Virus record (IMG/VR): IMGVR_UViG_3300044712_000732
Span: 445,776-501,337 of that record
Direction: 5' to 3' (one strand)
Origin: a virus
Length of the DNA: 55,562 bases
Under the pieces are notes generated by a model. That model was not told the DNA's origin. It did no database searches and was given only the letters and a program-made list of their open reading frames with translations. Below are positions 25,634-28,665 of the stretch, piece by piece (positions within the stretch are counted from its first letter, which is position 1; every line of letters begins with the position of its first letter). The translations under genes and the position numbers were made by a program.

Positions 25634-28255
25634 TTAATTTTTAATAAATTTATTTATTGATATTTCATTATTTTTCCCTATAATTTTTGTAATATATGTT
25701 CCGTATACTAAACCCGAAACATCTACTTGATTGGTATTCGAAATTAAAACTTTAAGACCTGAAATATTAAATATTTCTATTTGGTTAACGTCAATACCGA
25801 TAATATTGATAATATTTGATGTTGGATTAGGATAAATTTTAATTTTAGTTTGTGTTATATTTGTTATAGATTTAATGGGTGACAAAATAATAACTTTCGC
25901 AGTCGATTTCCCACACTGATCTTTAATTTCGTAGGTAAACCACGCATTACACCATTCAATAGAATCAGATGTGATGGTAATTGTGCTGTCTGTGGTATTG
26001 AACTCAACATGCAATTCGTTGTAACCTACATCCATTATAAACTGTGTAAGTAGCAAGTTATCACCGTCCACATCGTAGTCATTACACAAGATATCGTTGA
26101 ACGGAATAACCAATGTATCGGGTGCATTGAACCAGTGTAGGGTATCAGCAATTGCAACTGGAAAATCATTTACTGGAGTGATTGTAATGAAGATTTTCAG
26201 GTAAGCTGTCCCTTCCGCATGATTGGCTGACCAAACTTGCATGAAGATGGTGTCCTTACCAATCAAATCATGTGATGAATATATTATTTGATTATGTTTT
26301 GTTGAAGTATATTGACCTAGTTTAGGTTTTTTCTGATCCAATATATCAGTAATGGTAAAATTCAAATTGTATTCAGACATCTTCCTGGCAATGTCGATGG
26401 TAACCGGTGTATCCTCAGGGGTAGTTGTATAAATATAGAGTGTGGTTTCCAGTTCAATGGTGATATATACCGTGGCTTGAGTAGGAGCACCGTCATTATC
26501 GCTAATCTCGTAGGTAAACGAATCAAATCCCATATTGATAGATGGTTTATATAATATTGATCCTGTTAATTTATCAATCTGAACCATCCCATGTGTTGGA
26601 TTACCAATAATTTTAAGCGTTGACCATTTGAGTGTACCATCGGTATCATAGTCGTTTTCAAGAATGAAAATCCGATGATATGAATTTTTCGTGACGATAG
26701 CGGTGTCGTTTAAGGCAATAGGCGGGTCATTCACCTCGTTTACCCAGATGTTGATTTCAGCCATGTCCCAGTTTCCTTCCTGATCGGAAACAATATATTG
26801 CATCCAGTCGGGACCAAAATAATCGGGTTCAGGGGTATAGATCACTGTATTTTCAAAACTGCTTTGACTACCATGATTGGGTCCACTTATGATGTTGAAG
26901 CTTTCAGGATCGACAGGAATACCATTTATATTCTCATCGTTTATCAGTGGTGAAGGAATCAACTCGATCGGGATATTTTCATGGGTTGAAAAAATATCGG
27001 TTTGGGTAAAAAACATCTTTTCTTCAGGGGTAACAACTATAATTACCTTAGCACTATCACATGAAAACGTTTCAGAATGGGTATCACAAACACCATAAAC
27101 TAACGTATCAACACCAGTGAACCCAACTATAGGAATATACATCAACCCATTTGGTTCAACATATACTGAACCATGTCTCGGTTGTGCAATAACCGTTATT
27201 TTATCAATCCGATTATCAGGATCATTGGTCGAAATATCAATCGAAACTGGCACATCGACCTTTGTTTCAGCATAGTCGTCGTTAGCGGCAAACGGATCGC
27301 TCACTGGGGTAACTGTGATAAGTACGCTGGCAAAACTCCAGTTTCCGGGACCTGTTGATACAATATAGGTAAGGCTGTCGGTTCCATTGAAATCCTGATC
27401 AGGCGTGTAAACGATCATCTCCTTCTCAGGATCGAAAATGGTCACCCCGTTTTCAGGGAAGACTTTCAACTGAACAGTTCTCGGATCAGGAGATTCACTG
27501 CCAAGGGTATCGTTGGCAAGCACATCAATGTAAACCGGCGTATCTTCGGGTGTGACTATACTATCATTTTGTGCCTGAAAATCGGATAACGTGTCGCCAA
27601 CAATAACCGTTACGATCACATAAGCCCTTGCTTCAAGCGAATCTTTCATCGCATACTTGAATTCGTCGATCCCGGAATAATCCCTTTCAGGAGTATATAT
27701 AATTTGATTTCCAGTTTTTGAAACCTTACCGTTTCCTGAAGGTAGTTCAACCCAAACAGGATTTAGATTATTGTCGACATCGGCAACCTGAGCCAAATAG
27801 TCAAAACCAACGGGGTTCATCGGTGTCTTCAATACCAGATGGGTGGCCACCGGAGGATCGTTCACCGGGGTTACGGTAATGTAGAGCCATGCTTCATCAC
27901 ACGAGACTTCCATGCCGGTATCACAAATCCTGTATTTAAGACTGTCTTTCCCATAAAAATCCTTATCGGGGAAGTAATAGACTTCTCCGTTCGCACTATT
28001 ACGATAGGCTTTACCATGCTTTGGAAATTCAGTAATAGCCAGCGATGAATAGTCGAAATTACCTTTCCCGTCATTATCTATATCAGAATCATTGGCAACG
28101 ACATTGTACCGTAAATAGGTGTCTTCATCAATGATAATGAAATCGTTGTTTGCAAAAACTGTATTATTATCAAATAACAATGAATTATTTGCTGAAATTA
28201 CTATAATATCTACACAAATCAGTAAAACTAAGAATAATATTAATTTTTTCATCAT
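25634..28255 (-). CDS. secreted multi-domain (cadherin/Ig-like, VNDPP-type repeats) protein with a Type IX secretion system C-terminal sorting domain
   Basis: The N-terminal signal peptide MMKKLILFLVLLICVDIIVISA is followed by at least 6 repeats ending ..TVTPVNDPPVA / ITITPVNDFPVA. The C-terminal ~80 aa (KIKIYPNPTSNIINIIG...IEIFNISGLKVLIS....VSGLVYGTYITKIIGKN) match the T9SS/Por C-terminal domain consensus. The gene body is visibly more GC-rich than its surroundings. Confidence 0.7.
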   Translation of the reverse strand: MMKKLILFLVLLICVDIIVISANNSLLFDNNTVFANNDFIIIDEDTYLRYNVVANDSDIDNDGKGNFDYSSLAITEFPKHGKAYRNSANGEVYYFPDKDFYGKDSLKYRICDTGMEVSCDEAWLYITVTPVNDPPVATHLVLKTPMNPVGFDYLAQVADVDNNLNPVWVELPSGNGKVSKTGNQIIYTPERDYSGIDEFKYAMKDSLEARAYVIVTVIVGDTLSDFQAQNDSIVTPEDTPVYIDVLANDTLGSESPDPRTVQLKVFPENGVTIFDPEKEMIVYTPDQDFNGTDSLTYIVSTGPGNWSFASVLITVTPVSDPFAANDDYAETKVDVPVSIDISTNDPDNRIDKITVIAQPRHGSVYVEPNGLMYIPIVGFTGVDTLVYGVCDTHSETFSCDSAKVIIVVTPEEKMFFTQTDIFSTHENIPIELIPSPLINDENINGIPVDPESFNIISGPNHGSQSSFENTVIYTPEPDYFGPDWMQYIVSDQEGNWDMAEINIWVNEVNDPPIALNDTAIVTKNSYHRIFILENDYDTDGTLKWSTLKIIGNPTHGMVQIDKLTGSILYKPSINMGFDSFTYEISDNDGAPTQATVYITIELETTLYIYTTTPEDTPVTIDIARKMSEYNLNFTITDILDQKKPKLGQYTSTKHNQIIYSSHDLIGKDTIFMQVWSANHAEGTAYLKIFITITPVNDFPVAIADTLHWFNAPDTLVIPFNDILCNDYDVDGDNLLLTQFIMDVGYNELHVEFNTTDSTITITSDSIEWCNAWFTYEIKDQCGKSTAKVIILSPIKSITNITQTKIKIYPNPTSNIINIIGIDVNQIEIFNISGLKVLISNTNQVDVSGLVYGTYITKIIGKNNEISINKFIKN

Positions 28256-28419
28256 TTAATTTTTTGATTTATATCTTTTTTGATTAAAAATTCAATATAT
28301 TGTGATTTGTTAATGTTTTTTTCTTCACACAACTTATCTAATTCTTTATCTAAATCAATATTAATTGATACCGATAAATTCTTTCGCTGATCATCTTTTT
28401 TTATTTTAGGTCTTCCCAT
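28252..28419 (-). CDS. ribbon-helix-helix (CopG/Arc-like) DNA-binding protein, 55 aa (not in ORF track)
   Basis: Reverse-strand ORF MGRPKIKKDDQRKNLSVSINIDLDKELDKLCEEKNINKSQYIEFLIKKDINQKIK. It has a basic N-terminus, a beta-strand KNLSVSINID and two helices. Its stop overlaps the ATG of the T9SS-CTD gene (ATGA). Confidence 0.45.
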   Translation of the reverse strand: MGRPKIKKDDQRKNLSVSINIDLDKELDKLCEEKNINKSQYIEFLIKKDINQKIK

Positions 28420-28509
28420 AATTATTTTTCTACAAAGATATAAAAAAATTTTTATAAAATAACAAAATGACTTTATTTTATTTATATATACTGTAAAAAT
28501 ACTGTAATT
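28420..28509. promoter_or_regulatory. divergent promoter region between two small RHH-like ORFs
   Basis: 90-bp AT-rich spacer containing TATATA elements in both orientations (cagtatatataaat; ttttatatctttg) between divergent start codons. Confidence 0.35.
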
Positions 28510-28665
28510 ATGAAAAAACCAATCACTAAAAAGAAAGTATCACTAACATTAGATAAAACGACATATGATTATTTATATGAAAAATATTCAAATAAATCCA
28601 AATATTTGGAATGTTTAATTTATAACGATTTGAAAAATCGTTTAAAAAAAGAAATTATAATATGA
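28510..28665 (+). CDS. putative ribbon-helix-helix-like small protein, 51 aa (not in ORF track)
   Basis: MKKPITKKKVSLTLDKTTYDYLYEKYSNKSKYLECLIYNDLKNRLKKEIII. Its stop overlaps the ATG of 28662..29585 (ATGA). Confidence 0.4.
   Translation: MKKPITKKKVSLTLDKTTYDYLYEKYSNKSKYLECLIYNDLKNRLKKEIII

Follow-up and report, generated by a model that had tools for sequence, protein, structure and literature searches.

The stretch of DNA analysed here (the window) comprises 55,562 nucleotides (nt) of the IMG/VR virus record IMGVR_UViG_3300044712_000732 (positions 445,776 to 501,337); it is densely coding, with about 25% GC, and no tRNAs were found in it. On its minus strand lies a gene for an adhesin-like protein of 873 amino acids (aa) which, judged from homology and base composition, is a chimera built in the phage: an internal fragment of a giant bacterial adhesin, of the kind that ends in a C-terminal domain (CTD) of type B belonging to the secretion system of type IX (T9SS), has been combined with a phage-type signal peptide and a type A CTD.

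Organization of the locus

The adhesin gene is headed by RHH1, one of two small divergent genes for ribbon-helix-helix (RHH) proteins, and the other, RHH2, is followed by a homing-endonuclease-like gene. The RHH1 stop and the adhesin start share a 4-nt ATGA overlap, and an ATGA overlap is likewise shared by the RHH2 stop and the start of the nuclease gene. This layout of open reading frames (ORFs), including the two small RHH ORFs and both overlaps, had been described in an earlier reading of the letters alone (the original prediction) and was confirmed by the ORF map. The features of the locus are the following.

24777..25595, minus strand: conserved downstream phage ORF on the far side of the insertion, 272 aa from the ATG at 25595; 77% aa identical to the ORF directly after RHH1 in contig L016
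25612..25633, minus strand: 3' tail of the inserted segment, without counterpart in the empty site of contigs L016 and L017; a second TATCTTTG (-7-like) box, read from the sequence, lies at 25622..25615 before the downstream ORF
25634..28255, minus strand: adhesin ORF, predicted chimeric T9SS cargo gene; 873 aa with signal peptide, 7-8 tandem-95/Big_9 repeats and type A CTD (Pfam and NCBIfam matches)
25637..25873, minus strand: segment of the type A T9SS C-terminal sorting domain, aa 795-873 (PF18962/TIGR04183; Pfam match aa 807-871), of phage-native composition
25874..28180, minus strand: putative captured fragment of a bacterial adhesin, aa 26-794, tandem-95 repeats (homology to bacterial orthologs)
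25898..28134, no strand: GC island within the adhesin ORF (maximum-likelihood change-point fit and GC profiles)
28181..28255, minus strand: signal-peptide segment, aa 1-25, MMKKLILFLVLLICVDIIVISA followed by NN, of phage-native composition; cleavage site read by eye
28252..28419, minus strand: RHH1, ribbon-helix-helix protein of 55 aa (PF10723, RHH_1, Arc-like repressor phrog)
28420..28509, no strand: divergent spacer of 90 bp between RHH1 and RHH2
28510..28665, plus strand: RHH2, paralog of RHH1, 51 aa (BLASTP against RHH1)
28662..29585, plus strand: homing-endonuclease-like gene, 307 aa; three KVHGDKYDYS zinc-ribbon modules and a C-terminal nuclease-like domain (phrog matches)

Domain architecture of the adhesin

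The exact 873-aa protein corresponds to P0001 and is known from a single contig, a JGI contig of 501,337 bp. It was matched by Big_9 (PF17963; 8.9e-81, 267 bits, 7 stretches) and by tandem-95 (NF012211; 4.5e-78, 257 bits against a cutoff of 90, 8 stretches), and cadherin-like models also match. By these profiles it is a tandem-95/Big_9 repeat protein, for which an adhesive role is predicted. The cadherin- and immunoglobulin (Ig)-like repeats named in the original prediction were thereby borne out, but not the claim that six or more of them end in VNDPPVA, as only four VNDPPVA-like motifs are present (at aa 131, 318, 508 and 695).

A T9SS sorting domain occupies the extreme C-terminus (aa 807-873 of 873), where PF18962 Por_Secre_tail scored 32.2 bits (cutoff 27; profile positions 1-74 of 75) and TIGR04183 likewise 32.2 bits (cutoff 23; positions 1-72 of 72). 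The comparison with TIGR04183 had been proposed beforehand, and its outcome above the cutoff agrees with predicted type A T9SS cargo carrying Ig/cadherin-like repeats. No match to CHU_C, the type B CTD, was found in the phage protein with Pfam profiles at E<=0.1, and the protein had no PHROG match. Its N-terminus, read by eye, consists of MMKK and a 16-residue hydrophobic core, followed by ISA and, after the apparent cleavage site, NN.

A GC-rich island inside the gene

GC content in 500-bp windows is 0.35-0.45 across 25.75-28.25 kb, compared to 0.19-0.26 in the flanks, and the 1-kb windows of the adhesin gene are the GC-richest in the whole 55.5 kb. The GC content at third codon positions (GC3) is 0.35 in the adhesin gene, while nearly all neighbouring genes have 0.08-0.19 and one has 0.25. 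A two-change-point likelihood fit placed the island at 25898..28134, corresponding to aa 41-786, with 40.4% GC against a background of 22.8% (log-likelihood gain 103); the support intervals of its edges are 25868-25910 and 28070-28167 (aa 782-796 and aa 30-62). Along the gene, GC3 is about 0.4 in the middle, 0.17 at aa 1-30 and 0.13-0.17 at aa 781-873. The signal peptide and the CTD are as AT-rich as the phage, and the GC island lies strictly inside the ORF. The elevated GC content that had been predicted was thus recovered in the 500-bp windows, but its extension over the whole gene was not, both ends being AT-rich.

Origin of the repeat body, the signal peptide and the sorting domain

The closest homolog of the repeat body is P0002, with 75% aa identity over aa 203-794. 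It is encoded on L002, an 8.3-kb bacterial contig of 44.5% GC that also carries housekeeping genes, and at the DNA level the body and L002 are 79.8% identical over 1795 nt. The alignment with P0002 breaks down where the CTD begins, the bacterial protein going on there with more repeats. A scan across GTDB identified nine relatives of the body, all of them in metagenome-assembled genomes (MAGs) of Prolixibacteraceae/Bacteroidales, in which the orthologous ORFs have a length of about 3000 aa or more. The phage aa 26 to ~800 correspond to an internal stretch of these orthologs, e.g., to residues 1993-2795 of an ORF of at least 3151 aa in L005. The bacterial orthologs (L002, L005) end in a CHU_C type B CTD (94-97 bits), and a PorP/SprF gene (PorP_SprF, 219 bits) comes after the orthologous bacterial adhesin genes; no PorP/SprF gene was present near the phage adhesin among the ORFs and domain matches of the window.

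Bacterial homology begins at phage aa 26, directly after the apparent signal-peptidase site between VISA and NN, and because it starts only after this site, the fragment cannot have brought the signal peptide along. For the CTD, a single close relative was found in 5.8 billion proteins, namely P0121 (88% identity), encoded on L003, a phage-like contig of 23.5% GC. The stretch of L003 at nt 202-432 is 92% identical at the nt level to the CTD of the window, starting from aa ~796, where the bacterial homology stops. The gene is considered chimeric because the estimates of the breakpoints agree: bacterial homology covers aa 26 to ~794, the GC island aa 41-786, and homology to L003 begins at ~796, so that three independent lines fall within about 15 codons at the 3' junction and two lines lie at aa 26-41 at the 5' junction. 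A search for the phage-type CTD with other cargo in IMG/VR, JGI metagenomes and a phage GenBank collection, together with a motif scan, yielded L003 as the sole find, and the adhesin had no match in IMG/VR. A supposed remnant of the last repeat upstream of the L003 CTD (tblastn with aa 770-795) was rejected, since it turned out to be signal-peptide DNA in another frame.

Acquisition from Bacteroidetes, as put forward in the original prediction, therefore holds for the repeat body (75% aa and 80% nt identity; nine of nine relatives in Prolixibacteraceae/Bacteroidales), while other parts of that proposal need revision. The gene as a whole was not the transferred unit, as only the internal fragment aa 26-794 is bacterial, and the T9SS tail does not indicate a Bacteroidetes origin, since signal peptide and CTD are AT-rich, phage-native parts. 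Neither was the acquisition shown to be recent, the synonymous divergence (dS) to the closest bacterial sequence being ~0.85.

Between the body and L002, dN is 0.13 and dS 0.85, giving a dN/dS of 0.157, and the probability that the 746 codons of the body are stop-free by chance at its composition is ~7e-22. Because of this dN/dS ratio and this probability, we regard the adhesin ORF as maintained.

The insertion site and its variants

In L016 (22.5% GC), RHH2, the spacer and RHH1 are 92.6% identical to the window at the nt level up to position 28255. The homolog of the downstream ORF begins 5 nt after the RHH1 stop, where the alignment resumes at window position 25611 with 79.4% nt identity. 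L017 has the same adhesin-less arrangement, and on the basis of these alignments both contigs represent the empty site. Compared with them, the window contains an extra ~2.64 kb, consisting of the adhesin gene and ~21 nt that hold a TATCTTTG box. This extra segment is bounded by the 10-nt direct repeat AAAAATTAAA (28264-28255 and 25642-25633), for which the chance probability is ~0.01. A transfer junction had been placed at the RHH spacer; the junctions of the bacterial DNA lie inside the ORF instead, but a separate junction, that of the gene insertion, does abut the RHH1 stop, as seen from L016. The more distant contigs L004, L014 and L015 lack an adhesin, and their copy of the downstream ORF is preceded by a different neighbour.

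The alignment of L016 1-1193 with window 28520-24703 is a mosaic of the two levels of identity given above for the RHH module and the adjoining downstream ORF. As these comparisons suggest, the RHH module may be exchanged by recombination between phages separately from the genes beside it.

The related contigs are short metagenomic fragments, and L003 among them has a frame problem. It contains the promoter-bearing spacer followed by a signal peptide, MKKILIFMMLLIC, similar to that of the window, and has no repeat body. Within L003 86-430, the signal-peptide ORF MKKILIFMMLLICAVSINA ends at a TAG, and the CTD follows ~60 nt on in another frame; the stretch is either what is left of a cargo gene after decay or the product of a frameshift in the assembly. 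A 138-aa lipoprotein-like ORF and an RHH1 homolog were also observed on this contig after the signal-peptide/CTD stretch.

The RHH module and its partner genes

RHH1 was matched by PF10723 (RepB-RCR_reg) with 22.3 bits (cutoff 21) and by RHH_1 with 19.7 bits (just below the cutoff of 20.5), as well as by the Arc-like repressor PHROG and by a HicB-like phrog. It has 21 homologs with 62-96% identity, and PF10723 is matched by 22 and RHH_1 by 15 of the 23 members of the RHH alignment. RHH2 lacks a Pfam match of its own and has a weak match to the MazE antitoxin in NCBIfam (7e-5, 23 bits against a cutoff of 65). It is 38% identical to RHH1 (BLASTP, E 2e-6), and the view that the two small ORFs are RHH-family paralogs was upheld, with RHH2 assigned through this paralogy.

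Orthologs of RHH2 in L018, L019, L021 and L023 are 58-78% identical, and divergent pairing of the two genes across 46-139 bp was found in every homolog context with enough sequence (L018-L024). A scan of IMG/VR extended the set by 28 loci, which lie on low-GC contigs no longer than 330 kb; the divergent pair is present in ~16. Typically, RHH2 is 4-nt-coupled to a nuclease-like gene, the family of which varies between loci. The following partners were observed on the RHH2 side.

Window, L018, L038: phrog_559/681 type
L019, L031: GIY-YIG-looking N-terminus
L021: phrog_15137/DUF7487 type
L023, L028, L040, L041: repeat protein phrog_20046

The homing-endonuclease-like protein of the window was matched by phrog_559 (4.7e-88), phrog_681 (4e-47) and phrog_9084 (3.3e-33), the first of which supports the earlier description of this neighbour, and a 66% identical homolog occupies the same position in L018. 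From its family match and its variable presence the gene is classed as a free-standing homing endonuclease, with homing as the predicted activity.

The genes downstream of RHH1 are mutually unrelated and comprise the adhesin, small lipoproteins, membrane proteins and unknowns. The idea that the cargo on this side generally consists of envelope proteins was dropped, as only a few are lipoproteins or membrane proteins. Across these loci, the RHH pair reads as a pre-existing conserved module of many low-GC large phages, with varied nuclease and cargo sides. That it had been placed exactly at a transfer junction does not hold, since the same module is present in many related phages with unrelated flanking genes. 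Two copies of the module were seen on one phage contig in 3300037087_000772 (L026, L033) and in 3300029983_000007 (L030, L050). On these sequences, the module can be multi-copy in one genome. In a limited literature search, no description of an RHH-RHH module with variable nucleases was found.

Motifs in the divergent spacer

The minus strand of the spacer carries a TATCTTTG box at 28440..28433, 13 nt before the RHH1 ATG. On the plus strand, a TATATATA box (28483-28490) and then two TACTGTAA repeats with 11-bp spacing (28489-28496 and 28500-28507) precede the RHH2 ATG. The RHH2-proximal block of the spacer is invariant across 7 loci, lies at a fixed distance from the RHH2 ATG in 16 further loci and is unique in the window; in the form TTATTTATATATACT(A/G)TAAAAA it stands at a fixed ~21 nt from this ATG in nearly all loci, and in the window it passes directly into the two TACTGTAA repeats. 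When IMG/VR was scanned for the exact pattern of this block, nothing was returned because the second repeat varies, as became clear from a looser comparison. In some relatives, variants of the TACTGTAA repeat change in both copies together (ACAGTA x2, TCAGTA x2, ATAGTA x2; opposite strand), and the pair is likely to be an operator, for which it is the candidate here.

TATATATA(C) is ~15 times denser in intergenic than in coding DNA of the window and usually lies 10-25 nt before a start codon, and is probably a general promoter element of the phage. It occurs upstream of, e.g., 12714-14513, 35973-36707, 39568-40782, 40774-44979 and 49015-51447. Shine-Dalgarno-like sequences were not seen in the intergenic regions of the window, where leaders are A-rich. 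On the RHH1 side, the window, L016, L018 and L023 share TA(n)nTTTGTA 13-20 nt before the ATG, and TAnnTTTG has been described as the sigma-A -7 box of Bacteroidota (PMC9723704). The orientation of TAnnTTTG is 6 sense to 1 antisense. Generic scans of the window for sigma-70 promoters and terminators remained at background level.

The phage and its neighbouring genes

The best, and often the only, relatives of the window ORFs are found in uncultured phages of 462-735 kb (LR756500-LR756504, LR745206), followed by Prevotella megaphages and jumbo phages of Tenacibaculum and Chryseobacterium. The former belong to the Mahaphage clade of huge phages, with predicted Bacteroidetes hosts (Al-Shayeb et al. 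2020, PMC7162821). By these affinities, the window belongs to a huge phage of a Mahaphage-like group infecting Bacteroidota.

Beyond the homing-endonuclease-like gene, one protein of 1246 aa, encoded at 29545-33285 (minus strand), unites an Mre11-like phosphoesterase with a Rad50/SMC-like ATPase. The 3' end of its gene overlaps the homing-endonuclease-like gene by 41 nt in convergent orientation, and the N-terminal half of the protein is 47% identical to the 735-kb phage, with which this gene alone is shared in the surrounding region. A second homing-endonuclease-like gene (DUF7487, phrog homing endonuclease), related to the RHH2-coupled nuclease of L021, lies at 34813-35883 (minus strand), and a TnpB/IS605 OrfB-type gene (OrfB_IS605, Cas12f1-like TNB and HTH domains) at 39568-40782 (plus strand). 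At 21099-24020 (minus strand), an NAD-salvage pair (NAPRTase, 21099-22310; isochorismatase/nicotinamidase-like, 23343-24020) surrounds a ParB-like gene; each gene of this region is preceded by a TAnnTTTG(T) box, and the GC content is mildly raised (0.30-0.33). A ClpB/ClpC-like double AAA+ chaperone of 837 aa is encoded at 15341-17854 (minus strand). Finally, long collagen-like G-X-Y runs mark an ORF of 987 aa or more with raised GC content (0.30-0.38), which continues past the end of the window (52601-55562, plus strand) and probably encodes a fibre protein; odd ORFs at 53.2-55.5 kb are its out-of-frame and antisense shadows.

Proposed explanation and its alternatives

Taken as a whole, the locus is best explained as an accessory gene for a chimeric T9SS surface protein behind a conserved RHH module, a reading to which we assign a probability of roughly 0.7. 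The adhesin gene would be a "moron", an accessory gene whose product is a surface protein that the host exports with its own machinery, and would have been assembled from three pieces: a phage-type Sec signal peptide, a tandem-95/Ig-like block of ~770 aa from a giant Prolixibacteraceae-type adhesin and a phage-type type A CTD. For T9SS substrates, a Sec signal peptide as well as a CTD is required. The PorV shuttle recognises every type A CTD, and cargo of type A becomes anchored to anionic lipopolysaccharide (LPS), while type B substrates rely on cognate PorP/SprF shuttles, usually encoded alongside (PMC12618676, PMC9143113). With the type B tail replaced by a type A tail there is therefore no partner gene to carry, and export should work in any host with a T9SS. 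The phage adhesin would thus be secreted without a partner gene and probably be fixed to the cell surface or released.

The adhesin is translationally coupled to RHH1, and its transcription probably starts from the TATCTTTG promoter of the 90-bp spacer. As a bidirectional regulatory module, the two RHH proteins most likely act as repressors of both divergent promoters. At the cell surface, the protein may act in adhesion or aggregation, or may interfere with the native filament or with superinfecting phages.

A broader version, more doubtful and offered tentatively, is that Mahaphage-like phages carry a portable two-repressor "landing pad", the divergent RHH1/RHH2 pair with its conserved promoter-operator, where homing endonucleases gather on one flank and accessory genes on the opposite one. 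Here the pad would have served to domesticate a fragment of a gliding-type host adhesin, whose tag was switched from type B to type A, and the infected cell would show on its surface a shortened version of a filament of its own or of a neighbour, which could alter adhesion or block superinfection through this filament.

Several observations weigh against the proposed explanation. Only two such CTDs are found in ~350 kb of related phage DNA, so they are no general trait of the group, and the donor lineage of the body need not be the host of the phage. For the event at the RHH1 junction, a gain in the window and a loss in L016 both fit; the locus is variable and the gene chimeric in either case. 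Amelioration was dropped as a proof of recency: the substitutions between the body and L002 show a 230:102 GC-to-AT bias, but this does not prove amelioration because the GC3 of the body (0.37) lies inside the range that the bacterial orthologs already span (0.26-0.58). Regarding regulation, many of the IMG/VR loci lack the second operator repeat, TAnnTTTG is not enriched in intergenic DNA overall (1.22 vs. 0.99 per kb-strand), and a composite promoter of the form TTTG-N17-21-TAnnTTTG was rejected, with 3 matches against 5.6 expected and none in the spacer. As neither TAnnTTTG nor this -33/-7 composite is enriched, the promoter assignment is weak. An AlphaFold2 (AF2) monomer model of the RHH protein (pLDDT 79) has helices 21-33 and 38-54 where expected and no N-terminal strand; a Foldseek search of this model against the PDB gave no significant match, and a sequence search of the PDB was uninformative.

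Among the alternatives, the one that survives best, although unlikely, is that the RHH ORFs are antitoxins of toxin-antitoxin or addiction pairs (RHH2 with the nuclease, RHH1 with the gene downstream) and not a switch for cargo. Type II toxin-antitoxin operons typically have such a layout, in which a small RHH gene is coupled by 4 nt to a larger gene after it, and the MazE-family match of RHH2, the HicB-like phrog of RHH1 and the nucleases beside RHH2 all fit such a scheme. Yet the MazE-family score is 23 bits against a cutoff of 65, and the partners in the window are an adhesin and a homing-endonuclease-like protein. Across loci, the partners of RHH1 are unrelated to each other (adhesin, lipoproteins, unknowns) and without toxin signature, while the nuclease partners have homing-endonuclease architectures from several families. 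The two readings also overlap, since antitoxin RHH proteins are themselves operator-binding repressors.

Slightly less probable is a functionless passenger, i.e., recently captured DNA drifting to decay, with L003 as the end state. The out-of-frame signal peptide and CTD of L003, without cargo, would agree with such a course, as would the lack of the gene in relatives and the rarity of T9SS CTDs in the phage group. However, the 873 codons are intact in a genome in which stops readily come up, and both the stop-free probability and the dN/dS ratio of the body reported above speak for upkeep, as do the precise domain boundaries and the ATGA coupling to RHH1; the dS of ~0.85 argues for long keeping, although part of it is divergence on the bacterial branch.

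We consider it improbable that the protein is a component of the virion, such as an Ig-like decoration or a Hoc-like fibre adhesin, in place of being secreted by the cell. Phage particles commonly carry Ig-like and cadherin-like repeats, Phage C48C1 gave a tandem-repeat match, and the window ends in a collagen-like fibre gene. On the other hand, a signal peptide and a full-length type A sorting domain lead out of the cytoplasm, where virions assemble, and the gene has no PHROG match, neighbours of accessory and nuclease rather than structural character, and no counterpart in close relatives.

An assembly chimera, with a bacterial adhesin fragment misjoined into a phage contig, is by argument very unlikely: the GC-rich piece is indeed 80% identical to bacterial DNA and the protein comes from a single contig, but the two joins keep the reading frame and coincide with domain boundaries (one behind the cleavage site of the signal peptide, the other at the CTD start) within an intact 873-codon ORF, the nearest bacterial sequence is only 80% identical, so that no near-identical genome was co-assembled, and the CTD and the RHH module flank the body as in independent phage contigs.

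Significance and comparison with known systems

Huge phages are known to carry genes for surface proteins, but how these were acquired and how their products are routed is rarely traceable. Here, the sequence alone points to the donor lineage, the fragment taken, the two in-frame joins, the replacement of the tag and the empty site in a sister phage. The accessory surface-protein gene proposed above would therewith amount to a natural experiment on the modularity of T9SS signals. The RHH-RHH module, with its several nuclease families, is relevant to the question of how selfish endonucleases and accessory genes are regulated or tolerated by large phages.

Accessory genes that bring their own promoter-like element between conserved genes are known from the lambda-type morons and from hyperplastic regions with portable promoter cassettes. 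In T4-type phages, Arbiol and colleagues reportedly described PeSL promoter-stem-loop cassettes in 2010. As in these systems, a conserved regulatory cassette is combined with varying cargo in the locus studied here, with two RHH proteins in the place of a promoter-stem-loop.

A second parallel is offered by the Arc RHH protein of IS605 elements, which represses a promoter beside the nuclease of the mobile element (bioRxiv 10.64898/2026.09.24.754181). In both cases an RHH protein of ~50 aa is encoded beside a selfish nuclease gene and an intergenic promoter. In the phage, however, two divergent RHH paralogs share one spacer, the nucleases are homing-endonuclease-like instead of TnpA/TnpB, and binding and repression are predicted.

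The donors of the repeat body resemble, by architecture, the SprB-type gliding proteins of Flavobacterium johnsoniae (PMC9143113, PMC12618676), being giant and repetitive and having a CHU_C end followed by PorP/SprF. The phage protein differs from this type in its length of about a quarter, in its lack of a type B CTD and of PorP/SprF, and in its type A CTD.

The closest precedent for phage-encoded T9SS cargo is Cryophage, in which three variable genes have type A tails; its authors presumed that the T9SS of the host is hijacked and called this a unique occurrence (Bellas et al. 2020, PMC7468147). No papers linking the T9SS with huge phages were found in our literature search, and Cryophage was the one precedent found for phage-encoded type A cargo, so that the adhesin described here constitutes a second, independent case. 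Both are phages of the Fibrobacterota-Chlorobiota-Bacteroidota (FCB) group of hosts with genes for T9SS type A sorting domains, and the cargo of Cryophage varies between variants. It consists, however, of an endoglucanase, a GH39 protein and a PA14 protein in a much smaller phage, compared to a tandem-95 adhesin fragment in a phage of ~500 kb. New with respect to Cryophage are thus a different phage group, a donor that can be traced to adhesins with a type B CTD, a swap of the secretion-tag class, an empty site and a cargo-less remnant of signal peptide and CTD.

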